The translations under genes were made by a program, and so were the position numbers. This document shows, one piece after another, positions 1 to 54,120 of a stretch of 64,000 bases of DNA. The DNA comes from Clostridia bacterium (GTDB taxonomy: Bacteria > CBDUZB01 > JAGLHV01): assembly GCA_030637025.1 (NCBI GenBank), contig DAOVVV010000008.1, positions 5,802 to 69,801 of the forward strand. The letters run 5' to 3'. Positions within the stretch are counted from its first letter, which is position 1. Each line of letters begins with the position of its first letter. The notes beneath the pieces were generated by a model that worked only from the letters and a program-made list of their open reading frames with translations, was not told the origin of the DNA and did no database searches.

Positions 1-135
1 ATTTTTAAGCATAGCTTTTAAAAAAGGAAAAAGGACTTAATTTTGCAGTGAAAGATAAGAAATCAATGTGAGATAGACGGGGAATGGAGATTAATAGATG
101 GTTCCTTTTACTAATTGCCTAAAATGCAGGCATAC

Positions 136-151
136 TGGCAACCAAATTGCG
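136..151 (+). promoter_or_regulatory. sigma-54-type -24/-12 promoter-like motif (TGGCAA-N6-TTGC) upstream of glnA
   Basis: ctGGcaaccaaatTGCg: GG at 137-138 and GC at 149-150, a 12-nt offset identical to the TGGCAC-N5-TTGCW consensus. glnA is a classical RpoN target in other bacteria. Confidence 0.3.
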
Positions 152-170
152 TAAATAGAAGTAGAGAGGA

Positions 171-209
171 AAACGGCTATTTTATGGAATTAAGATAAAA
201 TAGCCGTTT
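171..209. terminator. perfect 14-bp stem hairpin (aaacggctatttta / taaaatagccgttt), 11-nt loop, no U-tract
   Basis: Inverted repeat read directly from the sequence. Possible terminator of an upstream gene, or a protein or RNA structural site in the glnA leader. Confidence 0.35.
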
Positions 210-253
210 GATTGCTCAGAAACTATTGGTTAATAAAAACCAAAAAAAATTAA

Positions 254-396
254 GAGTTCTGCGAAATAACGCATTCTGTCATTCCGCACTTGATGCGGAA
301 TCTAAAATGTAATGGATTCCTGCTTTCGCAGGAATGACCCGCCTTACAGACTGGCGGGCAAACAAAAAGGGTAAAAAGGTTATTTTGCAGAAGTCT
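254..396 (+). mobile_element. MITE-like composite repeat copy with TIRs (5' AGAGTTCTGC ... 3' GCAGAAGTCT). Contains REP-like palindromes gtcattccgcacttgatgcggaatc and ggattcctgctttcgcaggaatgac
   Basis: Near-identical copies at 16784-16924, 26596-26735 and 53940-54091. Its 3' end lies 33 nt before the glnA ATG. Confidence 0.6.
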
Positions 397-429
397 AAAA
401 CCAAAAAAAATTAAAAGGAGGAAAAAGAA

Positions 430-1761
430 ATGGGAAGCAGAAGTAAAGAAGAAATTTTGAAATTAGTAAAAGAAAATGATGTTAAATTTATTAGATTGTG
501 GTTTACCGACATTTTAGGACAGGTTAAAAGTTTTGCCATTACTGATAATGAATTAGAAACTGCCTTAGAAAACGGTATGGGTTTTGATGGTTCTTCCATT
601 ACCGGTTATCAATCCATAGAAGAAAGTGATATGATTGCTTTTCCTGATACAAGTACCTTTGAGCTACTTCCCTGGCGGCCAAAAGAAAAAGCAGTGGCCC
701 GTATGATTTGCGATATTTTAACCCCTGATAGAAAACCCTATGAAGGGGATCCCCGTTATATATTAAAAAAAGCCTTAAAAAGAGCTAACGATATGGGATT
801 TGACCATTTTTACATAGGACCGGAATTAGAATTTTTCTATTTTAAGAATGATCAGGGTGCTGAGGTTTTAGATAAAGGAGGGTATTTTGATTTAACTACC
901 TTAGATGTTGCTTCTGATTTAAGACGGGATACGGTACTGGCTTTAGAATCAATGGGAATACAGATTGAGTATAGTCACCATGAAGTAGGACCCAGTCAGC
1001 ACGAAATAGATATGCGTTATGATGATGCCATAAAAATGGCTGATAATGTAATAACTTATCGTATTATTGTTAAGGAAATTGCTCAAAAATACGGGGTGTA
1101 TGCTACATTTATGCCTAAACCGGTTTTTGGAGAAAATGGCAGTGGTATGCATACTCATCAGTCTCTTTTTAAAGGAGATAAAAATTCCTTTTTTTCCAAA
1201 AAGGATAAAAATTACTTAAGCGATACAGCCAAAAAATTTATTGCCGGACAAATAGTACATGCTAAGGAAATGAGTGCAGTATTTGCCCAATGGGTAAATT
1301 CTTACAAAAGACTTGTTCCGGGATATGAAGCCCCGGTTTATATTGCCTGGTCGCGAAGAAACAGATCAGCTTTAATCAGGGTGCCGGAATATCATCCGGG
1401 AAAGGAACAGGCAACGAGAATGGAATTTAGGTCTCCGGATCCTGCTTGCAATCCTTATCTAACCTTTGCGGTGTTACTGAATGCCGGTTTAGACGGTATT
1501 GAGAAAAATTATGAATTACCTGAATCAATAGAGAAGAATTTGTACAATTTAAGTGCGGAAGAGAGAAAAGATTTAGGAGTGGCGTCTCTGCCGGATAGTT
1601 TGGGAGAAGCAGTTAATCTATTGGAGAAGAGCGATTTTATAAAAAAAGCTCTAGGTGAGCATGTATTTTCTCGTTTTGTAACTTTAAAAAGAAAAGAATG
1701 GGATGATTATCGAATTCAATTGACCAAATATGAATTAGATAAGTTACTTCCCATACTCTAA
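430..1761 (+). CDS. glnA: glutamine synthetase type I (443 aa, GSI-alpha-like)
   Basis: Full-length Gln-synt N and C domains. Starts with the MxxxSKEEILKLVKENDVKFIRLWFTDILG pattern typical of GlnA. AAAAGGAGG RBS. Confidence 0.9.
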   Translation: MGSRSKEEILKLVKENDVKFIRLWFTDILGQVKSFAITDNELETALENGMGFDGSSITGYQSIEESDMIAFPDTSTFELLPWRPKEKAVARMICDILTPDRKPYEGDPRYILKKALKRANDMGFDHFYIGPELEFFYFKNDQGAEVLDKGGYFDLTTLDVASDLRRDTVLALESMGIQIEYSHHEVGPSQHEIDMRYDDAIKMADNVITYRIIVKEIAQKYGVYATFMPKPVFGENGSGMHTHQSLFKGDKNSFFSKKDKNYLSDTAKKFIAGQIVHAKEMSAVFAQWVNSYKRLVPGYEAPVYIAWSRRNRSALIRVPEYHPGKEQATRMEFRSPDPACNPYLTFAVLLNAGLDGIEKNYELPESIEKNLYNLSAEERKDLGVASLPDSLGEAVNLLEKSDFIKKALGEHVFSRFVTLKRKEWDDYRIQLTKYELDKLLPIL

Positions 1762-1773
1762 AATAAGGGAGTA

Positions 1774-1824
1774 TATACACAACCTTGGTTTTCTATTTAA
1801 ATAGGGAACCAAGGTGATGTGTTA
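1774..1824. terminator. imperfect long hairpin after glnA (core ccttggtt / aaccaagg)
   Basis: Inverted repeat 13 nt after the glnA stop. No clear U-tract. Confidence 0.3.
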
Positions 1825-1841
1825 TATTAGATTAAACGGTT

Positions 1842-2549
1842 ATGGTTTTAATTATAAAACATGTTACAGTAGAAGGTCCGGGGTTAATTGGTGATTTTTT
1901 TCAAGCTAGCAAATGGCAGATAAAAACGGTTGAATTGGGGAATGGGGATAAATTACCCGAAGACCTTCAAGGAATCAAAGGGATTATTGTTTTAGGTGGA
2001 CCGATGAATGTGGATGAAGAGAAACAATATCCTTTTTTGAAAGAGGAAAATAAGTTCTTAAAAAAAGCAATGATATTTAATATTCCTCTTTTAGGCATAT
2101 GTTTAGGTTCGCAGCTTCTGGCTAAAGCAACAGGAGCGAAAGTGCGAAAAGGTGTGGCGAAGGAAATCGGATGGTACAAAATTAATTTAACCGAAGAAAG
2201 TAAAAAAGATTTACTTTTTGAAGGTTTAGGAAAAAATTTGGAAGTATTTCAATGGCACGAAGACCAATTTGACTTACCGCAAGGAGCTTTATTATTAGCA
2301 AGATCTAAAATTTGTCCGAATCAGGCATTTAAGATAGGAAAGAATGCTTATGGCTTGCAGTTTCATATAGAAATTACTCCCGGGATGATTGAATCTTGGG
2401 TAAAGAAATATTATGTAGAGAATGGTAAGCAGTCGATTAAAATAACAGATGTGCAAAAGATGCTTATAGATACATATAGAAAAAAAGGACAATTAACGAG
2501 ACAGACAAAAAAAATTCTTTCCAATTTTTCTCAAATAATAGCAGGGTAA
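1842..2549 (+). CDS. class I glutamine amidotransferase-like protein (GATase1 / peptidase C26-like)
   Basis: GICLGSQLL nucleophile-elbow Cys and a QFHIE His motif, ~235 aa. Sits immediately after glnA. Confidence 0.65.
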   Translation: MVLIIKHVTVEGPGLIGDFFQASKWQIKTVELGNGDKLPEDLQGIKGIIVLGGPMNVDEEKQYPFLKEENKFLKKAMIFNIPLLGICLGSQLLAKATGAKVRKGVAKEIGWYKINLTEESKKDLLFEGLGKNLEVFQWHEDQFDLPQGALLLARSKICPNQAFKIGKNAYGLQFHIEITPGMIESWVKKYYVENGKQSIKITDVQKMLIDTYRKKGQLTRQTKKILSNFSQIIAG

Positions 2550-2552
2550 AAG

Positions 2553-2702
2553 TGGCAGTCGCAACCTTTAGGTTGCGTTCTCAGAGGAGATTTTCCGCAG
2601 GCTTTAGCCTGCGACTACCAAAAAGGGAGTTATGACACACTCTGTTCGCAGGAATCCATTTTGTCGACGATATCCTGGATTCCCGCTTTCGCGGGAATAA
2701 CA
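2553..2702. repeat. ~70-bp palindromic element (tggcagtcgc-hairpin-hairpin-gcgactacca) followed by REP-like half sites
   Basis: Copies at 4973-5038, 16375-16525, 35596-35627 and 53376-53403. Contains gcaacctttaggttgc and gcaggctttagcctgc hairpins. Confidence 0.6.
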
Positions 2703-2810
2703 ACAATAGGACTTTGGCAATAAATTCATAGTCTTCCGAATATTAAAAAAGGAATATGCTGAAAAATGAAAGTCAGGATCTATCTTGACACTACTTTAGA
2801 AAAAGACAAT

Positions 2811-2839
2811 TTGACAGGTGTTTTTTTTTGATGTATAAT
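2811..2839 (+). promoter_or_regulatory. consensus sigma-70 promoter TTGACA-N17-TATAAT
   Basis: TTGACA at 2811-2816 and TATAAT at 2834-2839. About 22 nt upstream of the 2861 start codon. Confidence 0.6.
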
Positions 2840-2860
2840 GCTTAAAATTTAGGCAGAATA

Positions 2861-3232
2861 ATGATTAATATTTCCATAATCGATAAAGAAAGAAAAGTAT
2901 CCTTACTAATTATTAAAGCCCTTAATGATGCTGGGTATTGCATAAAAAAAATAGATACTGAACAGGAAAAACAAATAATAGAAATAGAAGAGAAAAAAGT
3001 TTCTTTTGAACGATCAGTTAAAGAGCTGGAGGATTTTTTTATCCGCAGTAAAGAAAAAGAGCTTTATAAATTTATTTTAACTGCAATAGAAAAACCTTTA
3101 ATTGAGGATGTTTTAGAAAAATGTAGCGGAAATAAAGTGCAAGCAGCACAAATTTTAGGTATAAATAGGAATACTTTACATACTAAAATTAAAAAGTTAG
3201 GGATTAAAATAGAAAAATGGAAAAAAGAATGA
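2861..3232 (+). CDS. small regulator with C-terminal Fis-type (NtrC C-terminal-like) HTH
   Basis: C-terminal ...NKVQAAQILGINRNTLHTKIKKLGI resembles the HTH_8/Fis motif. No AAA+ or receiver domain. Its stop overlaps the nadE start. Confidence 0.5.
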   Translation: MINISIIDKERKVSLLIIKALNDAGYCIKKIDTEQEKQIIEIEEKKVSFERSVKELEDFFIRSKEKELYKFILTAIEKPLIEDVLEKCSGNKVQAAQILGINRNTLHTKIKKLGIKIEKWKKE

Positions 3233-4905
3233 GAATAGCTCTGGCCCAGATTAATTCTGTAGTGGGGGATTTAGAGGGAAATGTAAATAAAATTGTTCAT
3301 TTTGTGAAAAAAGCGCAAAAATTCAAAGCGGATATAGTAACATTTCCGGAATTAGCTATATGTGGATATCCCCCTGAAGATTTATTATTAAAAGAACATT
3401 TTGTGAAAGATAATCTAAAAGCATTAAATTCATTAGTAAGGAAAATTAGCAATATTGCAGTAATTGTCGGATTTGTAGATAGGGATAAAAAGGGTTATTT
3501 ATATAATGCAGCAGCTGTAATTAGTAAGGGGAAAATAAAAGGAATTTATCACAAGGTCAAGTTACCTAATTACGGAGTTTTTGATGAGAAAAGATATTTT
3601 CAACCAGGCAAAGAATTTCCTTTGTTTGAATTAAATCAGGTTGTTTTCGGAATTAATATTTGTGAAGATATCTGGGAACTAAAAGGAGTAGCGAAATTAC
3701 AGGCGGATGAAGGAGCACAAGTAATTATAAATATTTCCGCTTCTCCGTATTATGCCGGAAAAGAAAATTTAAAAAAGAAAATATTAACTAAGCAGGCAAA
3801 AGAAACAAGAACTTATCTTTGTTATAATAATTTAGTAGGAGGACAGGACGAACTTGTTTTTGACGGAGGCAGTGTTGTTTTTGATTTTGCGGGGAAAGAA
3901 ATAATAAGGGGTAAACAGTTTGAGGAAGATTTAATTATTGCTGATTTGCCAATAAAAAAAATAACAAATAAAATTAGAGGTAAAAAGTGTATTAAAATAA
4001 GTATCCCGGAAAATATTAAAAAACCTGTTTTACCAGAAAGTAAAGTAAAAAAATCAAAACAAATAAATAAAATTTATTCTGCTTTAGTTTTAGGAACGCA
4101 GGACTATATAAGAAAAAATGGTTTCCAGAAAGTAGTTGTTGGATTAAGTGGGGGAATAGATTCTGCTTTAACTGCGGTAATTGCCAGAGATGCAATAGGT
4201 AAAGAAAATGTTATTGGTATTTCAATGCCTTCCCGTTATTCATTAATGGAGACACAAAAAGATGCCCGTATTTTAGCTAAAAATTTAGGGATTAGATTTA
4301 TTACCATATCAATAGAAGATATTTTTAAAGTTTATTTAAGGGTACTGGAAAAGGAGTTTTTAGGGTTAAAAAATGATGTTACCGAAGAGAACTTACAGGC
4401 CAGAATAAGAGGAAATATCTTAATGGCTTTTTCTAATAAGTTTAATTGGCTGGTACTTACTACCGGAAATAAAAGTGAGACATCTGTTGGGTATTGCACC
4501 TTGTATGGTGATATGGCCGGCGGATTTGCCGTAATAAAAGATGTTCCGAAAATAATGGTTTACCGGTTAGCTGAATTTGTAAATGAAAAAGAAAATGAAA
4601 GTTTAATACCGGAAAGTATTCTGGTTCGGGAGCCATCGGCGGAATTGCGGGAAAATCAAAAAGACCGGGATAGTTTGCCTCCTTATACGATTTTAGATAA
4701 AATCATAAAGGGTTATGTGGAAGAAGACAAAAGTTCCAAAAAAATAACTACTAATAAAATCAGTATTGGTACGGTAAGAAAAATTATCCGGATGGTTGAT
4801 AAAAATGAATATAAACGCAGACAATCTTCTCCGGGGATAAAAATTACTTCCAAAGCATTTGGTAAGGACAGAAGATTTCCTATTACTAATAAATATAAAG
4901 AGTAG
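3229..4905 (+). CDS. nadE: glutamine-dependent NAD+ synthetase (nitrilase-like glutaminase domain + NAD synthase domain)
   Basis: MRIALAQIN start typical of the CN-hydrolase domain. The C-terminal half carries the PP-loop SGGIDS. An alternative in-frame ATG lies at 3217. Confidence 0.85.
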   Translation: MRIALAQINSVVGDLEGNVNKIVHFVKKAQKFKADIVTFPELAICGYPPEDLLLKEHFVKDNLKALNSLVRKISNIAVIVGFVDRDKKGYLYNAAAVISKGKIKGIYHKVKLPNYGVFDEKRYFQPGKEFPLFELNQVVFGINICEDIWELKGVAKLQADEGAQVIINISASPYYAGKENLKKKILTKQAKETRTYLCYNNLVGGQDELVFDGGSVVFDFAGKEIIRGKQFEEDLIIADLPIKKITNKIRGKKCIKISIPENIKKPVLPESKVKKSKQINKIYSALVLGTQDYIRKNGFQKVVVGLSGGIDSALTAVIARDAIGKENVIGISMPSRYSLMETQKDARILAKNLGIRFITISIEDIFKVYLRVLEKEFLGLKNDVTEENLQARIRGNILMAFSNKFNWLVLTTGNKSETSVGYCTLYGDMAGGFAVIKDVPKIMVYRLAEFVNEKENESLIPESILVREPSAELRENQKDRDSLPPYTILDKIIKGYVEEDKSSKKITTNKISIGTVRKIIRMVDKNEYKRRQSSPGIKITSKAFGKDRRFPITNKYKE

Positions 4906-4972
4906 TGAAAGTGTCAAAAAAGGAATGGCAAGAAAAACAGAAAGAAGTTTGTAGATAAAGAGAAAATCGGGG

Positions 4973-5038
4973 GGTAGCCGCAGGCTTTAGCCTGCGTTAT
5001 CGTTGGAGATTTTACGCAGGCTAAAGCCTGCGACTACA
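4973..5038. repeat. palindromic element copy (ggtagccgcaggctttagcctgcg...cgcaggctaaagcctgcgactaca)
   Basis: Same architecture as 2553-2620. Two internal 16-bp hairpins flanked by inverted ends. Confidence 0.6.
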
Positions 5039-5109
5039 AAAACAGAAATCAGAACAGAAATATGCAGATATTTTTGACAATACTAAAGGAATATTGAAAG
5101 AGATAAAAA

Positions 5110-8100
5110 ATGAAAAATACATTTTTTCCTAAAAAACAAGGATTATATGATCCACAATTTGAAAAGGATTCCTGTGGTGTAGGATTTGTGTGTGATATAA
5201 AAGGCAGGCAATCTAACGAAATGTTGCATTTGGGGATACAATCTCTTAATCGCCTCCTACATCGTGGTGCTACCGGCGCAGATCCTGAAACCGGAGATGG
5301 TGCGGGTATTCTTATTCAAATCCCCGATGAATTTTTCCAAAAAGAAACTCAAAAAATAGGAATTGATTTACCCCCATTAGGTGAATACGGTACAGGTTTA
5401 ATATTTTTACCTCCGGATAAAAAAGAGCGGCAGTTTTGTAAAGATATTTTTACAAAAATAATCAAACAGGAGCAGCAAAAACTTTTAGGATGGCGCAGGG
5501 TTCCGGTGGATGATTCCAGTATCGGTAAAACTGCCCGCCAGACTCAACCGGTGATTGAACAAATTTTTATTGCTAAAGACCCGAAGGTCAAAAAACAGAT
5601 ATATTTTGAAAGGCGCCTTTATGTAATTAGAAAACAGATAGAAAATATTATTCGTGCTTCTAATTTAAAACAAAAATCATATTTTTATGTTAATAATATT
5701 TCCTCTCGTACTTTTGCTTATAAAGGGCTATTAATTTCTAATCAATTGGAAAACTTTTTTCTGGATCTTAAAGATAAAAGCTTAAAAACCGCTCTTTGTT
5801 TAGTACATGCGCGCTATAGCACCAATACTTTTCCTACATGGGATTTGGCTCAGCCATTTAGGTTCTTAGCTCATAACGGAGAGATTAATACCTTACAGGG
5901 TAATATTAATTGGATGCGGGCCAGAGAAGGTTTACTACAAAGTGAAGTGTTTAGCGATCAAGATATTGAAAAAATAAAATCCATAATTGTTCCGGGTGGA
6001 AGTGATTCTGCAACTATTGATAATGTATTTGAATTACTTGCTTTAACCGATAAGTCCCTTCCACATGCGATGATGATGCTTATTCCCGGTGCCTGGCAGG
6101 AAAATAAATTAATGGATAAAAAATTAAAAGATTTTTATAAGTATCATGCCTGCTTTATGGAACCGTGGGATGGACCGGCTGCTATTGCTTTTACGGATGG
6201 GGTTAAAATCGGTGCTGTATTAGACAGGAATGGTTTGCGCCCGGCACGTTATATTGTAACTAAGAAAAATTTTGTGGTTATGGCGTCAGAAGTAGGGGTT
6301 TTAGATATAGCTCCGGAAGATATTCTTTTATCAGGAAGGTTAGAGCCGGGTAAAATATTTTTTATCGATACGGAAAAGGGGGAAATTGTCGAGGATAATG
6401 AAATAAAATTGGAAATGGCAGAAAGGCATCCCTATGGTCATTGGATGAAAGAACAGATGGTTGATCTTGATAAAATGCCGGCAGTTAAAAATACCCAAAA
6501 AATTATGCAGGATAGAGTAACATTTTTAAAAGCCTTTGGTTATACCCGCGAAGACTTAAAGTTTATTATCAAATTTATGGCTGAAAACGGAGAGGAACCT
6601 ACAGGTTCAATGGGGGATGATACCCCTCCTGCAATTTTATCTAAAGAACCGGAGCTTCTTTATAATTATTTTAAACAACTTTTTGCCCAGGTAACTAATC
6701 CGGCCATTGATCCTATAAGAGAAAACTTAGTAATGAGCCTGGAAAGTTATATCGGTTCTGAAAAGAATATTTTAGCAGAGACATCTTTACATTGTCATAA
6801 ATTAAGAGTAAAGAAACCTGTTTTGAGTAACGAAGATTTAGAAAAAATACGCAACATAAAAAAGAATGATCTTAAAACAAAGACTATTTCCGTTTTGTTT
6901 TCCACTAAGAACAAAGATAATAAGGAATTTATAAAAGCCCTGGATAAAATATGTGCAGAGGCAGTTATGGCAATCAAAGAAGGGTATACTTTTATTATTT
7001 TAAGTGACCGGGGTGTTAATAAAGAATATGCGGCAATACCGATTCTTTTAGCTCTGGGGGCCGTACATCATTTTTTAGTAAAAAAGGCTTTGCGTTCTCA
7101 AATTGGAATTATAATAGAAAGTGCGGAACCACGCGAAGTTCATCACTTTGCTCTTCTTTTTGGATACGGTGCTGATTGTATTAATTCTTATTTGGCCTAT
7201 GATGCAATTAAATATTTAATAGATGAGAACCGGATAGAATTAGATTATGATATTGCTTTGAGTAATTATAGAAAAGCTGTTGATAAAGGAATATTTAAAA
7301 TCCTTTCGAAGATGGGGATATCAACCTTACAAAGTTACAAAGGTGCTCAGATATTTGAAGCCCTGGGTTTAAAGGAAGAGATAATTAACAGGTGTTTTTT
7401 AGGAACGGTTTCCCGTATTGGCGGAGCAGGGTTTGATGTTATTATTAAAGAAACTCTTTTGCGCCACGAAAAAGCCTATTCCCAAAAAGAAACAACAACT
7501 TCTTCTTATCTGGATGCCGGTGGTGTGTACCAATGGAAAAGAAACGAAAAGTTTCATTTATGGAATCCCCAGACTATTTCTGCTTTACAGAATGCAGTCA
7601 GACAAAATAGTTATTCCGGGTATAAAGAATTTGCCCGTACGATAAATGACCAATCAGAAAATCCTGCTACTCTACGCAGTTTATTTAAATTTAAAAAAAC
7701 CGGAGCGATACCAATAAACAAAGTAGAACCGGCAGAAAAAATCCTAAAACGTTTTGTTACCGGGGCAATGAGCTTTGGTTCTATTTCCAAAGGAGCGCAC
7801 GAAAGTATTGCTATTGCGATGAATCGATTAGGTGCCCGTTCCAATACAGGGGAAGGGGGTGAAGATCCTGCACGGTTTAAGCCGTCGACTAATGGTAATT
7901 TTAAGCGTAGTGCAATAAAACAGGTTGCTTCAGGAAGATTTGGAGTAACTACGAATTATTTGGTAAATGCTGATGAGTTACAAATAAAAATAGCACAAGG
8001 GGCAAAACCCGGGGAAGGGGGGCAGCTTCCCGGGCATAAAGTAAGCCCGGCTATTGCCCAAATTCGTTATACTACCCCGGGAGTAATTTTAATTTCTCCT

Positions 8101-9651
8101 CCACCCCATCACGATATTTATTCTATTGAAGATTTAGCTCAATTAATCTTTGACTTAAAAAATACTAATCCCGGTGCCCGGATAAGCGTTAAACTTGTTT
8201 CTGAAATGGGGGTAGGAACAGTTGCGGCCGGAGTAGCTAAGGGACATGCCGATATGATTTTAATTTCCGGAGGAGATGGGGGAACCGGTGCTTCTCCCCG
8301 GAGTTCTATAAGGTATGCCGGTCTTCCCTGGGAATTAGGTATTTCAGAAACACATCAGACCCTGGTTTTGAATGATTTGCGTTCAAGGGTACGTTTACAA
8401 ACCGACGGACAAATGCGTACGGGGCGGGATATAGCCATTGCAGCCCTTTTGGGAGCAGATGAATTTGGTTTCGGTTCAGTTGTTTTGGTTGTTTTGGGAT
8501 GTATGATGCTCAGGCATTGCCATCTTAATAATTGTTCGTTAGGTGTTGCTACTCAAGACGAAGTTTTACAGGAAAGATTTAAAGGTAAACCTGAACACAT
8601 TGAGAATTATTTTCGTTTTGTAGCTGAGGAGATACGAGAAATTATGGCTGAGTTAGGATTTAGTAAAATGGATGAAATGGTCGGACGAACAGATTTATTA
8701 GAAATAAACCAAAATATTATTCCATGGAAAGCTAAAAATATTGATTATTCCGGTATTCTTTATCAGCCGCAAGGAGCTCATAAATTTTCAGGTTCGATTG
8801 AGCAGGATCACGGAATTGAGTACGTTTTGGATAAGAAACTTATTGAATATGCCCGGCCGGCTTTAGAGCAAGCACAAAAAGTTAGCATGGAGTTGAAAAT
8901 CAAAAATGTAAATAGAACCACCGGGGCAATGTTGAGTGGAAAGGTATGTAAAAAATATGGGGAAAAAGCCCTTGCAGAGGATACTATTTGTTTTAAGTTT
9001 AAAGGTGTCGCCGGTCAGAGCTTTGGTGCCTGGTTGGCTAAAGGGATAACCTTTGAATTGGAGGGTTTGGCTAATGATTATATCGGGAAAGGTATATCCG
9101 GAGGAAAAATAATTGTTTATCCGGATAAGAAATCGGATTATAAACCGGAGGAAAATATTATTATTGGGAATACGACTTTTTATGGTGCAATAGCAGGAGA
9201 GGCTTATATTTGCGGGGTTGCCGGGGAGAGATTTTGTATAAGAAATTCCGGTTTATACGCAGTGGTAGAAGGAGTGGGAGATCACGGTTGTGAATATATG
9301 ACCGGGGGAAGAGTGGTTATTTTAGGTAAAACAGGAAGGAATTTTGCTGCCGGAATGTCAGGTGGGATTGCCTATGTTTACGATGAAAAAAATAATTTTA
9401 AAGATAAATGCAATTTGAATATGGTAGAGTTGGAAAAAATAGATAAAGAAGATGAAAAAACCGTTTATGATTTACTGAATAGTCACTATATTTATACGCA
9501 AAGTTCCCGGGCAAAAACGATTTTAGATAATTTTAAAAATAAAATTAAAAAGTTTATTAAAGTAATGCCTGTAGAATACAAGCGTGTTTTAGAAGAAAAG
9601 AGAAAAAAAGAGACATTAGATTTGGAGGGGGTTTCAAATGGGAGATCCTAA
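5110..9651 (+). CDS. gltB: glutamate synthase large subunit (1513 aa)
   Basis: N-terminal Ntn amidotransferase domain (Cys in DSCGVGF), central domain, FMN domain and C-terminal GXGXG domain. Confidence 0.92.
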   Translation: MKNTFFPKKQGLYDPQFEKDSCGVGFVCDIKGRQSNEMLHLGIQSLNRLLHRGATGADPETGDGAGILIQIPDEFFQKETQKIGIDLPPLGEYGTGLIFLPPDKKERQFCKDIFTKIIKQEQQKLLGWRRVPVDDSSIGKTARQTQPVIEQIFIAKDPKVKKQIYFERRLYVIRKQIENIIRASNLKQKSYFYVNNISSRTFAYKGLLISNQLENFFLDLKDKSLKTALCLVHARYSTNTFPTWDLAQPFRFLAHNGEINTLQGNINWMRAREGLLQSEVFSDQDIEKIKSIIVPGGSDSATIDNVFELLALTDKSLPHAMMMLIPGAWQENKLMDKKLKDFYKYHACFMEPWDGPAAIAFTDGVKIGAVLDRNGLRPARYIVTKKNFVVMASEVGVLDIAPEDILLSGRLEPGKIFFIDTEKGEIVEDNEIKLEMAERHPYGHWMKEQMVDLDKMPAVKNTQKIMQDRVTFLKAFGYTREDLKFIIKFMAENGEEPTGSMGDDTPPAILSKEPELLYNYFKQLFAQVTNPAIDPIRENLVMSLESYIGSEKNILAETSLHCHKLRVKKPVLSNEDLEKIRNIKKNDLKTKTISVLFSTKNKDNKEFIKALDKICAEAVMAIKEGYTFIILSDRGVNKEYAAIPILLALGAVHHFLVKKALRSQIGIIIESAEPREVHHFALLFGYGADCINSYLAYDAIKYLIDENRIELDYDIALSNYRKAVDKGIFKILSKMGISTLQSYKGAQIFEALGLKEEIINRCFLGTVSRIGGAGFDVIIKETLLRHEKAYSQKETTTSSYLDAGGVYQWKRNEKFHLWNPQTISALQNAVRQNSYSGYKEFARTINDQSENPATLRSLFKFKKTGAIPINKVEPAEKILKRFVTGAMSFGSISKGAHESIAIAMNRLGARSNTGEGGEDPARFKPSTNGNFKRSAIKQVASGRFGVTTNYLVNADELQIKIAQGAKPGEGGQLPGHKVSPAIAQIRYTTPGVILISPPPHHDIYSIEDLAQLIFDLKNTNPGARISVKLVSEMGVGTVAAGVAKGHADMILISGGDGGTGASPRSSIRYAGLPWELGISETHQTLVLNDLRSRVRLQTDGQMRTGRDIAIAALLGADEFGFGSVVLVVLGCMMLRHCHLNNCSLGVATQDEVLQERFKGKPEHIENYFRFVAEEIREIMAELGFSKMDEMVGRTDLLEINQNIIPWKAKNIDYSGILYQPQGAHKFSGSIEQDHGIEYVLDKKLIEYARPALEQAQKVSMELKIKNVNRTTGAMLSGKVCKKYGEKALAEDTICFKFKGVAGQSFGAWLAKGITFELEGLANDYIGKGISGGKIIVYPDKKSDYKPEENIIIGNTTFYGAIAGEAYICGVAGERFCIRNSGLYAVVEGVGDHGCEYMTGGRVVILGKTGRNFAAGMSGGIAYVYDEKNNFKDKCNLNMVELEKIDKEDEKTVYDLLNSHYIYTQSSRAKTILDNFKNKIKKFIKVMPVEYKRVLEEKRKKETLDLEGVSNGRS

Positions 9652-16374: not shown

Positions 16375-16525
16375 TGGTAGCCGCAACCTTTAGGTTGCGT
16401 TATCGCCGGAGATTTTCCGCAGGCTACTTGTTCGCTCCGCCTCAGGCGGATTTGGAGGAAAGCCTGTGACTACCAAAAAGGGAGTTATGACACAGTCTGT
16501 TTGCAAGAATGACGCAGCAAGCTGC
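16375..16525. repeat. palindromic element copy carrying a nested insertion of the ccgcctcaggcgg module (16427-16460) inside its second hairpin, plus a 3' REP-like tail
   Basis: The consensus aggctaaagcct hairpin is split as aggcta[34-nt insert]agcct. The ends tggtagccgc / gtgactacca are retained. Confidence 0.6.
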
Positions 16526-16767: not shown

Positions 16768-16783
16768 AAAGGTGTGAAGTTAA

Positions 16784-16924
16784 AGAGTTCTGCAAAATAC
16801 AATATTCTGTCATTTCGCTCTGCCTGAGGCAGATGATGCGGAATCTATAATGTTTTTAAATATCAATAGATTCCTGTTTTCGCAGGAATGACAAAAAAGA
16901 TAAAAAGCTATTTTGCAGAAGTCT
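16784..16924 (+). mobile_element. MITE-like composite repeat copy (TIRs agagttctgc / gcagaagtct)
   Basis: Same modules as 254-396. Its 3' end lies 31 nt before the 16956 ATG. Confidence 0.6.
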
Positions 16925-16955
16925 ATGTGAAGTTATTAAAAGGAGGAAAGGAAAA

Positions 16956-21760: not shown

Positions 21761-22135
21761 GATAGTCCATAGACAACAAACAACAGAAAGTTATAAGTTA
21801 ATAGTTATGAGTTATAAGTTAAAAGAAAATTGAAAGACAAGAATAAAAAACAGGCACAAAGGCATCAAGGCACAGAGGCACAAAGTAAAAGACAAGACAA
21901 CAGATAGTCCATAGACAACAAACAACAGAAAGTTATAAGTTACTAGTTATGAGTTATAAGTTAAAAAAAAATTGAAAGACAAGAATAAAAGACAGGCACA
22001 AAGGCATCAAGGCACAGAGGCACAAAGTAAAAGACAAGACAACAGATAAAAGATAAAAGAAAGTTATTAGTTAATAGTTATGAGTTATAAGTTAAAGAAA
22101 TAAAAAACAAAGACAAAGACAAAAGAAAAAAGACG
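21761..22135. repeat. tandem array: two full 142-bp units (21761-21902, 21903-22044), a degenerate third, and a degenerate unit upstream
   Basis: Units are more than 95% identical. Each contains an 8-bp-periodic AGGCACAA x4 sub-repeat and a gttataagtta sub-repeat. The + strand is strongly T-depleted. Confidence 0.8.
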
Positions 22136-26591: not shown

Positions 26592-26595
26592 ATAG

Positions 26596-26735
26596 ACTTC
26601 TGCGGAATGACACATTCTGTCATTCCGCTCCGCCTCAGGCGGATGATGCGGAATCTATAATATTCTTAAATATCAATAAATTCCTGCTTCCGCAGGAATG
26701 ACAATAAAAGGAAAAAGGTTGTTTTGCAGAACTCT
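26596..26735 (+). mobile_element. MITE-like composite repeat copy (5' TIR agacttctgc, 3' gcagaactct)
   Basis: The 5' TIR is an exact reverse complement of the canonical 3' end. Its 3' end lies 30 nt before the 26766 ATG. Confidence 0.6.
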
Positions 26736-26765
26736 TAAAAATTCAGAAATAAAGGAGGGGGAATT

Positions 26766-28992: not shown

Positions 28993-30606
28993 ATGCAGAA
29001 ATATTCTTTTGATGCTGTTATTTTTGACTTGGATGGTGTTGTTACTAAAACAGCCCTTCTACATTCTGAAGCATGGAAAGAAACTTTTGATCAATATTTA
29101 CAACAAAGAAAAAACAAGAACAATAAACCTTTTCGCGAGTTTACCCATGAGGATGATTATCTTCCTTTTGTTGATGGTAAACCTAAATACGAGGGGGTTA
29201 AGAGTTTTTTTCAATCACGCGGAATTAATATTCCCTTTGGTGACCCCTCCGATACTGCCGATAAAAATACTATTTGTGGTGTTGGCAATAAAAAAAATAT
29301 TCTTTTTAGACAATTACTTAAAAAAAGGGGAGCAGAGACTTATCCTAGTACCATTCAATTTATAAAAAATCTGAAGGAATCAGGCATCAGAGTAGGGGTT
29401 GCTTCGTCTTCGAGAAATTGTGAAACCATTCTGGAATCCGTAGGTTTAGAAAAATTGTTCGAGACAAGAGTTGACGGGGTAGTTTCTGCACAACTTAAGC
29501 TTAAAGGTAAACCGGAAGGAGATATTTTTGTTAAAGCGTCACGTAATTTAAATGCCGTCCCATCCAAAACTGTTATAGTGGAAGATGCTATTTCAGGAAT
29601 TCAGGCAGGAAGAAACGGAGGATTTGGATTGGTTCTTGGTGTAGCAAGGAACAATAATGAATCTGAGCTTATTGAAAACGGGGCAGATATTGTAGTTAGC
29701 GATTTAGCAAAAATAAGCATGGAATATATTGAAAAGTGGTTTCACCGCAAGCCGTTATCTTTACCTTCTTTTTTAGAAAGCAACAAAGAAACAATAAATA
29801 ATTTATCCGAAAACAGAACGAATGGAAAAGATGTAATTATTAATTCCCACTATAATCACAATAATATATCCACCCTTTTTAACAAAAAAAAAGTTGTATT
29901 TCTGGATTATGACGGCACTTTGACTCCCATTGTAGAACGGCCGGAACTGGCTGTTTTGTCATCGGAAATGAGAGCGGCGATAAAACATCTTGCTGAAAAA
30001 TATACTGTTGCTATTGTTAGCGGAAGAATGAGAGAAGATGTAGAAAAACTTGTTGGAATTAAGGGGATTTTTTATGCAGGAAGTCATGGTTTTGATATTA
30101 TGGGCCCCGGTTTTTCTATGATGCATCCTAAAGTTAAAGAAATTATGCCGGTTATTTCGCAAATAATCAAACAGCTTTCTGAAAAATTGAGTGATATACA
30201 GGGGATATTAATTGAAGAAAAAAAATTTAGTGTAGCTGTTCACTATCGTCTTGTTGAGCAACAATATTTGCCTCGGATTAAAGAAATTATCGATGAGATT
30301 ATTAAAGACCAAAATAAAATTTGTTTAATGAGCGGGAAAAAAGTTTTTGAAATTTTACCTGATATTGATTGGGATAAAGGCAAGGCAGTACGATGGATTA
30401 TAGACGCTTTAAAAGTTTCCTGGCAAGATGTCTGTGTGGTCTACATCGGAGATGATGTTACCGATGAATATGCCTTTAGAACGCTCCGTACAAGAGGGTT
30501 TGGAATTTTAGTTTCTAACGAATCTAAAGAATCGGCTGCGGATTTTAGACTATCTTCAACAGAAGAAGTAAAAAAATTGTTTGAGAAGGTTGTTGCTCAT
30601 GCCTGA
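28993..30606 (+). CDS. fusion: beta-phosphoglucomutase-like HAD hydrolase (N) + trehalose-6-phosphate phosphatase (C)
   Basis: Two HAD DxD motifs: AVIFDLDGVVT (beta-PGM-like, with cap) and VVFLDYDGTLTP (OtsB-like). Start chosen at the ATG after aaaggggag. Confidence 0.7.
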   Translation: MQKYSFDAVIFDLDGVVTKTALLHSEAWKETFDQYLQQRKNKNNKPFREFTHEDDYLPFVDGKPKYEGVKSFFQSRGINIPFGDPSDTADKNTICGVGNKKNILFRQLLKKRGAETYPSTIQFIKNLKESGIRVGVASSSRNCETILESVGLEKLFETRVDGVVSAQLKLKGKPEGDIFVKASRNLNAVPSKTVIVEDAISGIQAGRNGGFGLVLGVARNNNESELIENGADIVVSDLAKISMEYIEKWFHRKPLSLPSFLESNKETINNLSENRTNGKDVIINSHYNHNNISTLFNKKKVVFLDYDGTLTPIVERPELAVLSSEMRAAIKHLAEKYTVAIVSGRMREDVEKLVGIKGIFYAGSHGFDIMGPGFSMMHPKVKEIMPVISQIIKQLSEKLSDIQGILIEEKKFSVAVHYRLVEQQYLPRIKEIIDEIIKDQNKICLMSGKKVFEILPDIDWDKGKAVRWIIDALKVSWQDVCVVYIGDDVTDEYAFRTLRTRGFGILVSNESKESAADFRLSSTEEVKKLFEKVVAHA

Positions 30607-33451
30607 AAAAGCGAATGAGGATATTAATAAAACTTCTAATTGGAAATTATCTTATAACCAATTTCAACCGGTGCAGGAGGGACTAAGAGAATCGCTTTGT
30701 ACTCTGGGGAATGGTTATTTAGGAACCAGGGGAGCTATTTATGAATCTCCTGCTTCCAGGGTACATTATCCGGGTACTTACATTGCCGGAGTTTATAACG
30801 AATTGCCTACAATTATTGCCGGGAGAAAAACATTAAACGAAGATTTTGTTAATTGTCCTAATTGGTTGTTTTTAACTTTTAAAAATGAAAAAGGAAATTG
30901 GGTTTCTCTTTCCACCAGTAAAATTCTTTTTTATCATCAAGAACTTGATTTTCGCCGGGGAGTTCTTATAAGAAAGGTCCGGCTTCAGAATGATAATGGA
31001 CAAATAACCACTATTGAAACAGAAAGGATTGTCCATTTAGTATATCCGCATTGTGTTGCAATTAAATATACCGTTATTCCTGAAAATTATGAAGGTTTCA
31101 TAACAATAAAATCAGCACTTGATGGAACAGTACAAAATACCGGTGTTCCTAGATATAGACAATTAAACTCTAAACATCTGATGCCTTCTTCCCTGGGAAG
31201 CTTTGATAATAACGGGGTTTATCTGGCAATGAAAACGACCCAATCCAATATTAAAATTTGCCAGGCAGCAAAAGTGCTGATATCTATTAACGGCAAAAAA
31301 ATTAAATCAGTAAATAAAGTTTCGACTAAAAAGAAAGAAAAAATTGAGCAGGAATTTAAAGTATTTGTGCGTCAACAACAACGCTGTGAGATTGAAAAAA
31401 TCGTTACTATTTATACCTCTAAAGATAAAGATATTAGTAATCCGCTTTCTTCCGCTATTAATTCAGTAAAAAAACATCCCGGATTTGATGTGCTTTTTAA
31501 AACTCATCAATCTGCGTGGAAAGATTTATGGAAAAAATTTGATATTCAAATTAACGGTGATGCTTTTTCCCAAAAAGTACTAAGACTGCATATTTTCCAT
31601 TTATTGCAAACAGCCTCTATTCATAATACTAAGATTGATGCCGGACTTCCAGCCAGAGGATTACATGGAGAAGCTTATCGCGGGCATATTTTTTGGGATG
31701 AACTTTTTGTTATGTCTTTTTTTGATTTCCATAGTCCGGAAATATCAAAAGCATTGCTTTTATATAGATACCAGCGTCTTATACCTGCCAGAAAATCTGC
31801 GAAAAAAAGCGGATATAAGGGAGCAATGTTTCCCTGGCAGAGCGGTTCTGACGGCAAGGAAAAAACTCAGTTTATTCATTTGAATCCAATGTCAGGTAAA
31901 TGGGGGCCCGATCATACTTATGTGCAAAGGCATGTTTCCTTTGCTATTGCTTATAATGTATGGCAATATTGGAAAAAATCTAACGACCTGGATTTTCTTG
32001 TAAATTACGGGGCTGAAATAATACTGTCAATTGCTCAATTCGGAGCCAGTCTTGCCCAATATGACGTTGAAGATAGTAGATATCATACCCATGACCTTAT
32101 GGGCCCCGATGAATTTCACGAAAAAGTTTCTAATTCACAAAAGCCCGGATTTAAAGATAATGCTTATACTAATTTGTTAATTGTGTGGACATTACTTAAA
32201 GCAAAAGAAGTTATTGCTATTTTACCTCCACAGCATCGAACCAAGATAATTAAGAAATTAAAACTTGATCAAACTGAATTACTGCGATGGAAAGATATTA
32301 CCCGTAAGATGAAGATATCTATCAATAATGAAGGCATTATTGGCCAGTTTGACGGATATTTTAAATTAAAAGAATTAAATTGGGATGCTTACAGAAGAAA
32401 ATATGATAAAATCGAACGTATGGATAGAATTTTAAAAGCGGAAGGAAAATCACCGAACGATTATAAAGCAGCCAAGCAAGCAGATGTTTTGATGCTCTTT
32501 TACTTATTTCCTTTATTTGAAATAAAAGATTTGTTTCATCGGTTAGGATATAGGTTTGATCGGTACGTTTTGAAAAGAAATTATGAATATTATATAAAAA
32601 GAACTTCACATGGCTCAAGTTTGAGTAAAGTTGTTCACTGTTACATTTCTTATTTATTAGGAAAGTCAAAAGAAGGATGGCAGTGGTTTTCCAGTGTTCT
32701 CAAATCAGATATTTATGATGTTCAGGGAGGAACAACTGTTGAGGGTATTCATACCGGCATAATGGGTGGTTCCATTGATATGGTGGTAAGAGGATTCGCC
32801 GGAGTATATATGGGGGAGCAGATAATTAATATTACTCCTAATCTTCCTCCTCATTGGCAAAGTCTCAGGCTTAAATTTTGTTATAGGAGAAATTGGTTTT
32901 CTTTATTTATAACTAAAGAACAAATTACTATTTCTATAGCCGGATCCAAATCCAAAGAATTTGCTGTTCCCGTTAAAATCCATGGAAAATTATATCATTT
33001 CTTTTTTGGAAAAAAATATAGTATTTCTCTTGAAAAAAATATTAAGGGGAAAGGGAATTCGAAAATGATACAAAAAAGGATATTAATTGTTGACGGAAAT
33101 ATTACTCAAACGGAAATACTAAAAACAAGATTACAAGCTATGGGTTATTTAATAGATTGTGCCCACACGGGTAAAGAAGCTTTGGATGTTTTAGAAACCA
33201 AATGGGTAGATTTAATTATATCTGCTATTATTTTTCAAGGAGGAATGAACGGTTTTCAATTTTTTAAAGAAGTAAAAAAGAGGAAACGGCTTTCAAAAAT
33301 ACCTATTGCTATGCAAAGCAGTAAAGCTGCAATGAAAAAAATATTTGAGATAATGGGAGTAGATATCTTTTTTGTTAAACCGTATTCTGTAGATTTATTT
33401 TTGAACGAAGTAAAAAATATTTTAAATAAAGAAGATATTTGTTCTCAGTAG
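30599..33451 (+). CDS. GH65 glycoside phosphorylase (trehalose/kojibiose/maltose phosphorylase family) fused to a C-terminal degenerate receiver (pseudo-REC) domain
   Basis: GH65 N-terminal, catalytic (alpha/alpha)6 and C-terminal domains. An in-frame CheY-like domain at the last ~125 aa has DD->DG and phospho-Asp->Ala changes. The ATG at 30599 overlaps the upstream stop (ATGCCTGA). Confidence 0.7.
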   Translation: MPEKANEDINKTSNWKLSYNQFQPVQEGLRESLCTLGNGYLGTRGAIYESPASRVHYPGTYIAGVYNELPTIIAGRKTLNEDFVNCPNWLFLTFKNEKGNWVSLSTSKILFYHQELDFRRGVLIRKVRLQNDNGQITTIETERIVHLVYPHCVAIKYTVIPENYEGFITIKSALDGTVQNTGVPRYRQLNSKHLMPSSLGSFDNNGVYLAMKTTQSNIKICQAAKVLISINGKKIKSVNKVSTKKKEKIEQEFKVFVRQQQRCEIEKIVTIYTSKDKDISNPLSSAINSVKKHPGFDVLFKTHQSAWKDLWKKFDIQINGDAFSQKVLRLHIFHLLQTASIHNTKIDAGLPARGLHGEAYRGHIFWDELFVMSFFDFHSPEISKALLLYRYQRLIPARKSAKKSGYKGAMFPWQSGSDGKEKTQFIHLNPMSGKWGPDHTYVQRHVSFAIAYNVWQYWKKSNDLDFLVNYGAEIILSIAQFGASLAQYDVEDSRYHTHDLMGPDEFHEKVSNSQKPGFKDNAYTNLLIVWTLLKAKEVIAILPPQHRTKIIKKLKLDQTELLRWKDITRKMKISINNEGIIGQFDGYFKLKELNWDAYRRKYDKIERMDRILKAEGKSPNDYKAAKQADVLMLFYLFPLFEIKDLFHRLGYRFDRYVLKRNYEYYIKRTSHGSSLSKVVHCYISYLLGKSKEGWQWFSSVLKSDIYDVQGGTTVEGIHTGIMGGSIDMVVRGFAGVYMGEQIINITPNLPPHWQSLRLKFCYRRNWFSLFITKEQITISIAGSKSKEFAVPVKIHGKLYHFFFGKKYSISLEKNIKGKGNSKMIQKRILIVDGNITQTEILKTRLQAMGYLIDCAHTGKEALDVLETKWVDLIISAIIFQGGMNGFQFFKEVKKRKRLSKIPIAMQSSKAAMKKIFEIMGVDIFFVKPYSVDLFLNEVKNILNKEDICSQ

Positions 33452-35496: not shown

Positions 35497-35730
35497 AGAG
35501 TTCTGCAAAATAACGCATTCTGTCATGCGGAATCTGTAATGTGTTTAAAATATCAATAGATTTCTGCTTTCCAGACTGTGTCGCAATCCCTTTTTTGGTA
35601 GTAGCAGGCTTTAGCCTGCGGCTACCACATGAAAATATGAGTTATGACACAGTCTGTTCGCAGGAATGACTTGCCTTATCCGCCAGTCTTTAAGGCGGAG
35701 CGGGCAGGCAAACTACTTCGCAGAAAGATT
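35497..35730 (+). mobile_element. MITE-like composite repeat (5' TIR agagttctgc) with the short palindromic element (35596-35627) and ccgccagtctttaaggcgg module nested inside
   Basis: Largest copy (~235 bp). Its 3' end lies 30 nt before the 35761 ATG. Confidence 0.55.
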
Positions 35731-35760
35731 AAAAAATAAACTAAAAGGAGGAAATTAGTA

Positions 35761-42401: not shown

Positions 42402-43280
42402 ATGAAAAAGCGTTTACAGGTTTTAACAGGAATTGGATTGGGATTGATTTTAACTACAAGCCTTTATGCCCAGGAAATGGTGCAAATAAAAGGTTCGGAT
42501 ACGTTGATTAATCTTGTACAACGATTATCTGAAGTATATATGGAAAAAAATCCGGGCAAATTTATTGCCATAACCGGTGGAGGTTCGGGAACAGGAATTG
42601 CAGGATTGATTAACGGAAAGTGTGATATTGCCAATGCTTCCCGTTTGATGAAATCCAAAGAAATAAAGCAAGCCAACAGCAGAAAAATAACACCTAAAAG
42701 AATCGTAATTGCTATGGATGGTTTAAGTGTTATTGTTAATGACCGGAATCCGGTTGATAAATTAACCAAGGATGAACTCGGCAGAATATTTCGTGGAGAA
42801 GTTACTAATTGGAAGGAAATCGGCGGAAAAGATATGTCCATTACTCTTTACGGCAGGCAATCTAATTCGGGAACTTTTGTTTTCTTTAAAGAAGCAATAT
42901 TAAAAGCTGATTATTCACAGAAAATGAATCGTATGAATGGTAACGCACAAATAGTAGAAGCAGTAAAGCAGGATGTTAGCGGCATTGGTTATGTCGGAGT
43001 AGGGTATGTAAAAAAAGTAACCGGACTTACTGTTGTAAGGGTTGCTTCTGCTTCCGAAAAAAAATACATCAGCCCGCTTGATGCCGAAGATGTTAAAAGC
43101 GGAAAATATCCTATTACCCGTCCGCTTAATCAGTATCTAAATGGCATACCTAAAGGTGCGGTTAGTCATTTTATTGCTTTTGAATTGAGTAAAGAGGGAC
43201 AAAGAATCGTGGAGGAAGAAGGATTTTTCCCTATACCTTCCGAATATAGAGATTTTAACAATAAAAATTTGGGAATGTAG
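42402..43280 (+). CDS. pstS: phosphate ABC transporter substrate-binding protein
   Basis: Start moved to the ATG after aaagggagg. MKKRLQVLTGIGLGLILTTSLYA signal peptide. Confidence 0.85.
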   Translation: MKKRLQVLTGIGLGLILTTSLYAQEMVQIKGSDTLINLVQRLSEVYMEKNPGKFIAITGGGSGTGIAGLINGKCDIANASRLMKSKEIKQANSRKITPKRIVIAMDGLSVIVNDRNPVDKLTKDELGRIFRGEVTNWKEIGGKDMSITLYGRQSNSGTFVFFKEAILKADYSQKMNRMNGNAQIVEAVKQDVSGIGYVGVGYVKKVTGLTVVRVASASEKKYISPLDAEDVKSGKYPITRPLNQYLNGIPKGAVSHFIAFELSKEGQRIVEEEGFFPIPSEYRDFNNKNLGM

Positions 43281-53939: not shown

Positions 53940-54091
53940 AGTTATGCAAAATACAATATTCTGCCTGCCCGCCAGTCTTTAAGGAGGGTCATTCCGCACT
54001 TGATGCGGAATCTATAATGTTTTTAAATATCAATAGATTCCTGCTTTCGCAGGAATGACAAAAAAGATAAAAAGCTATTTTGCAGAAGTTT
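53940..54091 (+). mobile_element. MITE-like composite repeat copy (TIRs agagttatgc / gcagaagttt)
   Basis: Near-identical to 254-396 and 16784-16924. Its 3' end lies 29 nt before the dfx ATG. Confidence 0.6.
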
Positions 54092-54120
54092 AAAAAATCT
54101 TTAATAAAGGAGGGAAGAAG

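Follow-up and report, generated by a model that had tools for sequence, protein, structure and literature searches.

A sigma-54-type −24/−12 element, TGGCAACCAAATTGCG, lies at positions 136 to 151 on the plus strand of the window, the 64,000-nucleotide stretch of contig DAOVVV010000008.1 (assembly GCA_030637025.1) analysed here. It stands upstream of the glutamine synthetase gene glnA and, judged from sequence comparison with related genomes, is probably a working promoter for that gene. Plainly visible in the DNA are the motif itself, its conservation and constant orientation upstream of nitrogen operons, the kinase and activator genes that adjoin such an operon in a relative, and the empty insertion site, in a sister strain, of a miniature inverted-repeat transposable element (MITE) that occupies the glnA leader. 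In the proposed arrangement, an NtrC-type enhancer-binding protein would activate from a distance, at ATGCTTAAAAAT sites some 130-175 nt upstream (window positions 1-12 and just outside the window), and transcription would start near position 162. The transcript would carry a 15-bp stem-loop near its 5′ end, followed by the 143-bp MITE and then the ribosome-binding site, and rpoN and the activator gene would be encoded elsewhere in the host genome. In other bacteria glnA is the archetypal RpoN/NtrC-dependent gene.

The −24/−12 element and its conservation at nitrogen operons

Scored against TGGCAC-N5-TTGC, the element fits at nine of the ten specified bases, with A replacing C at position −21, and the base after TTGC is G rather than the W of the extended consensus TGGCAC-N5-TTGCW. 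Its GG (137-138) and GC (149-150) have 10 bp between them and stand in the 12-nt register that is the canonical sigma-54 spacing, as a preliminary description of this DNA, made from the letters alone, had claimed. The core TGGCAACCAAATTGC covers 136-150, and with one more 5′ base the sequence reads cTGGCAACCAAATTGCg (135-151); the element is intergenic and points toward glnA. On the two strands of the 64-kb window the exact pattern TGGCA-N6-TTGC occurs twice, against 0.37 expected. The second match (42556-42570, minus strand) runs antisense within a phosphate-binding-protein gene and looks like a chance occurrence, and a pattern allowing two mismatches shows no enrichment (12 found, 19.6 expected). 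Because of these counts the single match upstream of glnA is by itself only a lead, and the weight falls on its position and on the comparison with relatives.

That comparison uses L001, a 91.7-kb ENA metagenome contig with identical DNA on which window position 1 is position 9572; the locus was also assembled from further samples of the same series (L001-L006). The readable part of the host contig amounts to ~94 kb, and statements on rpoN, activators and repeat copies apply to this length. The closest genome record is the metagenome-assembled genome JAGLYT01 (L007; GlnA 99%), treated here as a sister strain. Further relatives (GlnA 74-83%) are mostly labelled Candidatus Omnitrophota, and the host appears to be an Omnitrophota-like bacterium.

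Across six genomes, nine sites with the motif lie upstream of glnA or of amtB/P-II operons, and all nine face the downstream gene. A second exact copy on L001, TGGCAATATAATTGC, stands 104 nt 5′ of the first P-II gene, at the head of the P-II/porin/amtB/P-II operon directly 5′ of the window; this copy and the glnA site are the sole exact matches within the 21-kb L001 locus. The sister strain has the same motif upstream of glnA. In L008 (GlnA 81%) the glnA site, TGGCAATGAAATTGCG, lies 287 nt 5′ of its gene and the amtB site, TGGCAATGTAATTGCG, 75 nt; in L178 (GlnA 82%) the sites are TGGCAATCAAATTGC 5′ of glnA and TGGCAATGTAATTGC 5′ of amtB, the latter at 80 nt. The common form at both genes in these two genomes is TGGCAAT-N3-AATTGC. 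The form TGGCAT-N5-TTGC is found 58 nt upstream of glnA in L020 (GlnA 74%) and 208 nt upstream in L180 (81%). Alignments show the motif as a conserved block within flanking intergenic DNA that is otherwise poorly conserved. L180 also encodes another activator and has a further motif upstream of small heat-shock genes.

A chance match in AT-rich intergenic DNA would be in keeping with the clearly non-functional second match in the window and with the lack of enrichment of the loose pattern. It becomes extremely improbable once the relatives are counted, however, since, of the eight exact matches counted over the window, L001, L008 and L178, seven immediately precede a nitrogen-assimilation operon and face it. 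The preliminary description had placed a sigma-54 element upstream of glnA and had advised looking for the same motif at other nitrogen genes. Its proposal gains support from the recurrence of the motif 5′ of the P-II/porin/amtB/P-II operon of the same contig and of amtB in L008 and L178, from the activator gene that adjoins it in L178 and from a shared upstream 12-mer.

Activators and candidate enhancer sites

Immediately 5′ of the amtB-PII-glnA genes of L178 are genes (4853-7567) for a GAF-HisKA-HATPase kinase and a REC-Sigma54_activat-HTH_8 regulator, which from their domains are predicted to be an NtrB/NtrC-type pair. The sigma-54 contact motif of the activator (gene at 6134-7567) is GAFTDA rather than GAFTGA, a form listed among the GAFTGA variants expected to keep activity (PMC4641369). 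In L020 a NifA-type activator gene, above the NCBIfam cut-off, lies directly 5′ of glnA and its motif, and in L012 a NifA-type activator is divergently encoded beside porin-amtB-PII-glnA; the canonical motif was not found in the L012 intergenic region next to the activator. The sub-lineage clearly uses sigma-54. Homology searches from the L020 and L012 NifA-type proteins did not single out a host copy, both families being large and reaching a plateau at 60-70% identity, and the candidate P0159 was rejected as host activator because it comes from other samples and another organism.

The sites at which such an activator would bind are suggested by the 12-mer ATGCTTAAAAAT, which recurs upstream of the motif at 127 nt for amtB of L178, 137 nt for glnA of L178 and 139 nt for glnA of L008. 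The host has it in reverse orientation as ATTTTTAAGCAT, its reverse complement, at window positions 1-12 (minus strand), 134 nt upstream of the −24 element; with this copy included, four promoters from three genomes have the 12-mer at 127-139 nt. It forms the right arm of the palindrome TTAATTTTCAGGC-N5-GCTTAAAAATTAA in L008 and L178, and the host has a perfect palindrome, TTTTTAAGC-N5-GCTTAAAAA, 40 nt further upstream and just outside the window (L001 9532-9554). All three copies of the 10-mer TGCTTAAAAA in L001 are within 300 nt upstream of the two motifs, and the sole window copy (2-11) is one of these three. The two sites at glnA, about four helical turns apart and at roughly −150 and −190 from the predicted start, have the layout of an NtrC-type enhancer, and the 12-mer is a candidate activator-binding site. 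Because two motifs and three upstream sites are intact while the neighbouring DNA has diverged, the system appears to be still in use.

Several observations weigh against a working sigma-54 promoter. Position −21 of the element is A, not the consensus C. The motif is missing from most Omnitrophota relatives (GlnA 73-83%), whose leader is of quite another kind, with a GGTTACCAAAA...TTTTTACTT box and terminator hairpins, accompanied by genes for GAF-ANTAR and small sigma-like proteins; the sigma-54 layout is thus restricted to one sub-lineage. Neither rpoN nor a sigma-54 activator gene was found in the readable host contig by Pfam or by six-frame searches for GAFTGA and the RpoN box, and for the window and the readable contig flanks the preliminary remark that no enhancer-binding protein is encoded nearby is accurate. 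The six-frame search found no RpoN box in the window or in any fetched locus, and a search seeded with the L012 activator returned no obvious orthologue from the host among the best 120 matches. A very stable hairpin about 10 nt after the predicted start, discussed below, is atypical of an uncomplicated promoter and leader, and transcripts could end or stall at it. Finally, most sites have a palindromic GCAAT-N3-ATTGC core, which could be recognised by a dimeric regulator as well.

The palindrome could then be an operator bound by a dimeric nitrogen regulator, with the true promoter elsewhere. The inverted repeat GCAAT-N3-ATTGC is perfect in five of the nine sites (4/5 in the window), and a Fis/NtrC-type helix-turn-helix (HTH) protein is encoded in the cluster. 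This is nevertheless improbable. The invariant G that precedes GCA is not mirrored after TGC, every site is oriented alike relative to its downstream gene, and the sites of L020 and L180 keep GG-N10-GC while being palindromic only in the GCA/TGC already contained in the sigma-54 consensus. In addition, sigma-54 activators are encoded beside motif sites in L178 and L020, and the HTH_8 gene of the cluster also occurs in relatives that lack the motif. The flanks of the motif are asymmetric (TTG before it, GTA after it), and for this reason a directional promoter fits better than a palindromic operator.

The missing regulator genes bear on another alternative, in which the motif is a relic. The lineage would once have controlled this cluster by NtrBC and sigma-54, as L178 still does. 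In the host, sigma-54 would since have been lost, or the activator lost or moved elsewhere, and transcription of glnA would come from a sigma-70 promoter at 210-239 or from read-through of amtB-P-II. Consistent with this, ntrB and ntrC stand beside the cluster in L178 and are absent there in the host, no activator or rpoN was found in the ~94 kb, a sigma-70-like match follows the hairpin, and the stretch from the P-II stop codon to the motif has no terminator. Yet the two motif copies and three 10-mer copies have stayed intact in DNA that has otherwise diverged beyond alignment from L008 and L178. The sigma-70-like match, TTGATT-N18-AATAAA on the plus strand (210-239), is also weak: it lacks T at position 6 and is unflagged in the window strain, the sister strain has AATAAT and is flagged there at 9/12, and matches of this type occur at chance frequency in such AT-rich DNA. 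It is a possible secondary promoter. That the motif is a mere relic is considered unlikely, and a sigma-54 promoter in current use at 136-151 is preferred.

The stem-loop at 171-209

Downstream of the proposed start, a perfect 15-bp hairpin with a 9-nt loop occupies 171-209 on the plus strand (arms 171-185 and 195-209; −21.9 kcal/mol, z = −6.1), roughly +10 to +48 of the predicted transcript. The preliminary description had given a perfect 14-bp hairpin at 171-209; the hairpin and its coordinates stand, and its length is corrected to 15 perfect pairs. The sister strain L007 keeps it with one A-T to G-C change across both arms and a loop 3 nt shorter, so that the stem has 5 of 15 G-C pairs and a 6-nt loop there versus 4 of 15 pairs and 9 nt in the window. 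Its sequence is unique to the glnA locus, and a dispersed repeat is rejected on this ground. In L008 and L178 the hairpin is absent and the same position is the start of a small open reading frame (ORF) of 63 aa, intact in L178 (9729-9920) and decayed in L008 (~5225-5300). A near-consensus sigma-70 match 3′ of the motif in L008 (TTGAGA-17-TATAAT) is a decayed remnant of the ORF that is intact in L178, and therefore gives no evidence for a conserved second promoter. ORFs of 60-95 aa directly upstream of glnA are also present in L009, L015 and L097; they share the start ...K(A/K)WLK(R/K)..EC and have no Pfam match.

A 5′ structural or stabilising stem-loop is the favoured role of the hairpin, although only tentatively so, and an attenuator or terminator is a somewhat less likely possibility. 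If it were a leader terminator behind a real sigma-54 promoter, the hairpin would end most transcripts at ~55 nt, either by attenuation or to give a very small RNA under nitrogen control, and expression of glnA would depend on read-through or on another promoter. A 15-bp stem between an A-tract and TTTGATTG has the look of a bidirectional intrinsic terminator, and relatives have terminator-containing leaders with GAF-ANTAR proteins at the same genes. There is also a precedent in Klebsiella nasF, where a sigma-54 promoter is followed by an antiterminated leader terminator. The host resembles that system in its stable hairpin directly 3′ of the sigma-54-type promoter of a nitrogen gene, and the relatives resemble it in pairing GAF-ANTAR proteins with terminator leaders at glnA and amtB.

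Unlike those leaders, however, the host has a poor U-tract, no ANTAR gene on its contig, and no room for an antiterminator, because only ~9 nt precede the stem. A rho-independent terminator would have a G+C-rich stem, a loop of 3-8 nt and a U-rich tail; no plus-strand terminator was called at the hairpin in the window strain or in L007, because the tail after the full stem is GATTGCTC. In L007 a T-to-C change weakens the U-tract further, with pairing kept by the change on the other arm. The ANTAR-type leaders of relatives accompany a different promoter box rather than the sigma-54 motif, and the features of ANTAR-controlled leaders, an ANTAR gene together with tandem small hairpins that overlap a terminator, were not found in the window, L007, L008 or L178. 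Termination of most glnA transcripts at the hairpin is accordingly regarded as rather doubtful. A search of positions 1-3000 against Rfam (E up to 1) found no glutamine riboswitch and returned only weak unrelated matches (E 0.11 or higher). Among 11 relatives, the only Rfam match at gathering score was a group I intron in L014 (2047-2255; 79 bits, E 3e-18).

A recent MITE insertion in the glnA leader

Between the hairpin and the ribosome-binding site, a 143-bp MITE-like mosaic repeat with three internal hairpins occupies 254-396 on the plus strand. Its terminal inverted repeats (TIRs) are imperfect: the ends, (A)GAGTTCTGCGAAATAAC and GTTATTTTGCAGAAGTCT, are largely complementary and are paired in RNA folding, and the ends of the family consensus, AGAGTTCTGCAAAATA ... 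TATTTTGCAGAAGTCT, match at 14 of 16 positions by manual count. An 18-bp target-site duplication, AAAACCAAAAAAAATTAA, flanks the element as a direct repeat at 236-253 and 397-414. The sister strain L007 has a single copy of this target and lacks the element; its sequence ...GACCAAAAAAACTTAAAAAGGAGG runs straight into the ribosome-binding site, and the motif is 131 nt from the glnA ATG versus 294 nt in the window. From this empty site it follows that the element and the 18-bp duplication entered the leader after the strains split, and a recent MITE insertion is thus directly demonstrated. The 143-bp MITE-like element and its possible insertion into the glnA leader, both put forward in the preliminary description, are borne out by the flanking repeats, the TIRs, the copy number of the family and the empty site.

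At least nine copies of the family, ~130-300 bp in length, are present in the ~94 kb, all of them intergenic and on the plus strand: 254-396, 16783-16925, 26594-26739, 35497-35760 and 53951-54095 in the window, and 564-718, 1935-2088, 6620-6781 and 9020-9147 on L001. The family is a mosaic in which the ends are conserved and internal hairpin modules are variably present or absent. The flanking direct repeats vary from ~7 to 18 bp, and at copies other than the one in the glnA leader they are imperfect and ~7-10 bp long. Eight of the nine copies end 10-35 nt 5′ of a Shine-Dalgarno sequence and start codon, and all nine are oriented as the downstream gene, a bias in position and orientation that could reflect target preference, selection or a role in the 5′ untranslated region. 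The MITE RNA folds on itself (z = −8.95), and the final ~34 nt, with the Shine-Dalgarno sequence among them, remain unpaired. Since the self-folding leaves this sequence free, the MITE is probably a tolerated passenger rather than a regulatory element.

A specific association of the MITE with nitrogen genes is rejected, as copies are spread across the whole contig. The suggestion in the preliminary description that the MITE may now supply an alternative promoter finds no support, since no consistent outward −35/−10 pair is present at the 3′ end across copies. No transposase was seen on the contig, where a parent element with the same ends was not specifically sought. Other intergenic repeat modules, with the sequences GGYAGYCGCAACCTTTAGGTTGCG... 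and ...GACTACCAAAAAGGGAGTTATGACACA..., form a second family; they occur in the window at 2554-2655, 4973-5042, 16376-16510 and 35618-35667 and are often joined to pieces of the MITE family.

The Correia/NEMIS repeats of Neisseria and the ERIC/REP-type repeats are MITE-like sequences that are co-transcribed in untranslated regions. The host family is similar to them in being short and non-coding, with TIRs, target-site duplication, many intergenic copies, internal hairpins and a mosaic structure, and in the placement of a copy between promoter and start codon, where it is predicted to be transcribed with the gene. It differs in its unrelated sequence, its long and variable target duplications (~7-18 bp) and the position of almost all copies 10-35 nt before a Shine-Dalgarno sequence in gene orientation, and it is not known to carry a promoter, an IHF site or an RNase III site.

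The 123-residue HTH_8 protein of the cluster

The cluster also encodes, at 2861-3232 on the plus strand, a 123-aa Fis/NtrC-type protein with an HTH_8 domain (E 3e-15) and no AAA+ domain. Over 78 aa it shares 49% identity with the C-terminal end of the L178 NtrC-type activator (E 1e-14), and the recognition helix INRNTL is identical in the two proteins. Among solved structures Fis is the best match (E 1e-9) and enteric NtrC a weak one (E 7e-3). The preliminary description of a Fis-HTH-only protein resembling the C-terminus of NtrC is therefore apt for the lineage's own activator, while among structures the protein is closer to Fis than to enteric NtrC. Like the Fis and NtrC C-terminal DNA-binding domains it matches HTH_8, Fis structures and the NtrC C-terminus; unlike NtrC it has neither an AAA+ domain nor a complete receiver, and for this reason it would be unable to activate sigma-54 itself. 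It is nearest to the DNA-binding end of the NtrC-type protein of its own lineage. Orthologues lie between glnA and nadE/gltB in many relatives, with or without the sigma-54 motif (for example L178 11402-11791, L015 12060-12434 and L023 4072-4443).

The N-terminal ~30 residues (MIxILxVDDERKVYxLLxKALxxxGY) resemble, on inspection, the first strand-helix-strand of a receiver domain, and one BLAST match (E 0.03) points the same way, whereas Pfam detected no receiver domain even at E up to 10. This is a lead that suggests a cut-down NtrC. A consensus sigma-70 promoter, TTGACA-17-TATAAT, stands at 2811-2839 on the plus strand, 21 nt 5′ of the HTH_8 gene, which overlaps nadE; from this perfect match the organism evidently uses canonical sigma-70 promoters. 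As a matter of speculation, and with a low probability, the protein might be an NtrC paralogue that binds the ATGCTTAAAAAT sites as a competitor or architectural partner, a decoy reduced to the DNA-binding domain that would tune the glnA/amtB enhancer. If this were true, a decoy expressed from a sigma-70 promoter together with a promoter-proximal stem-loop would constitute an undescribed layered control of a sigma-54 promoter.

Genomic context of the locus

The glnA gene (430-1761, plus strand) encodes a type I glutamine synthetase of 443 aa (Pfam Gln-synt_C, E 8e-133), and the ORF position agrees with the ATG at 430 given in the preliminary description; a Shine-Dalgarno sequence, AAGGAGG (415-421, plus strand), lies 8 nt 5′ of it. 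The window further contains genes for a class-I amidotransferase, the 123-aa HTH_8 protein, nadE, gltB, gltD, carA, carB and a glutamate-synthase-domain protein, and on L001 the DNA 5′ of the window encodes P-II, a porin-like protein, amtB and a second P-II. Together the window and its upstream flank hold a large nitrogen-assimilation cluster. Almost every gene in the window (1-64000) is on the plus strand, and the GC skew stays positive along the whole stretch (0.12-0.28). At 30581-33451, after a trehalose-phosphatase fusion gene, a gene encodes a 956-aa glycoside hydrolase family 65 protein (maltose/trehalose phosphorylase type) with a C-terminal response-regulator receiver domain, an unusual enzyme-receiver fusion. 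Two tandem 142-bp copies (98% identical) and a partial third form an intergenic array at 21761-22100, 5′ of a DUF2007 gene.

Nitrogen regulation in relatives and wider implications

In enteric bacteria, glnAp2 is the NtrC-activated sigma-54 promoter of glnA and has upstream NtrC sites. The present system resembles it in gene order and overall logic: the host has a GG-N10-GC promoter upstream of glnA and repeated candidate sites at enhancer distance, the nitrogen cluster of the relative L178 is linked to genes for a two-component kinase and a REC-AAA+-HTH_8 activator, and the amtB/P-II genes are under the same promoter type. In contrast to the enterobacterial system, the host is Omnitrophota-like and its candidate upstream activating site is the AT-rich ATGCTTAAAAAT rather than TGCACC-N5-GGTGCA. 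The L178 kinase senses through a GAF domain and the L178 activator has GAFTDA; in the host, the cluster has no activator gene linked to it, an equivalent of the upstream sigma-70 promoter glnAp1 is not evident, and the leader is split by a MITE.

Many other Omnitrophota relatives encode a GAF-ANTAR protein of ~240 aa beside glnA or amtB (L009 6437-7150, L015 4127-4879, L019 4475-5188, L090 1226-1960, L093 3358-4113, L095 272-979 and L176 817-1524). Their glnA, amtB and porin leaders share a GGTTACCAAAA-N7-9-TTTTTACTT box, a CACAAnGTTTGTG hairpin and ACAAAGRCGTTC...GAACGYCTTTTTTT terminators, and no Rfam family matches these leaders at gathering score. The leaders look like an undescribed ANTAR-type attenuation system for nitrogen assimilation. 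Immediately upstream of the GGTTACCAAAA box, a protein of ~170 aa with a sigma-70 region 2/4 or GerE-type domain is encoded (upstream of amtB in L091, L094 and L096; L177 4173-4676; L179 9314-9832); possibly this is a sigma factor devoted to the nitrogen cluster.

The mechanism proposed for glnA is an ordinary, textbook one in a little-studied lineage. Regulation in Omnitrophota has hardly been studied, and a full-text literature search turned up no Omnitrophota or Omnitrophica paper on sigma-54, rpoN or regulation. The amtB-PII-glnA-gltBD cluster of close relatives has at least three regulatory set-ups, namely NtrBC with sigma-54, a NifA-type activator with sigma-54, and a small sigma-like protein with GAF-ANTAR attenuators. 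For one sub-lineage, TGGCAAT-N3-AATTGC with ATGCTTAAAAAT provides a testable promoter and enhancer pair for nitrogen control, and the sister strain and the window strain form a natural pair, with a glnA leader lacking or containing the MITE, in which the effect of the insertion on expression could be assessed.

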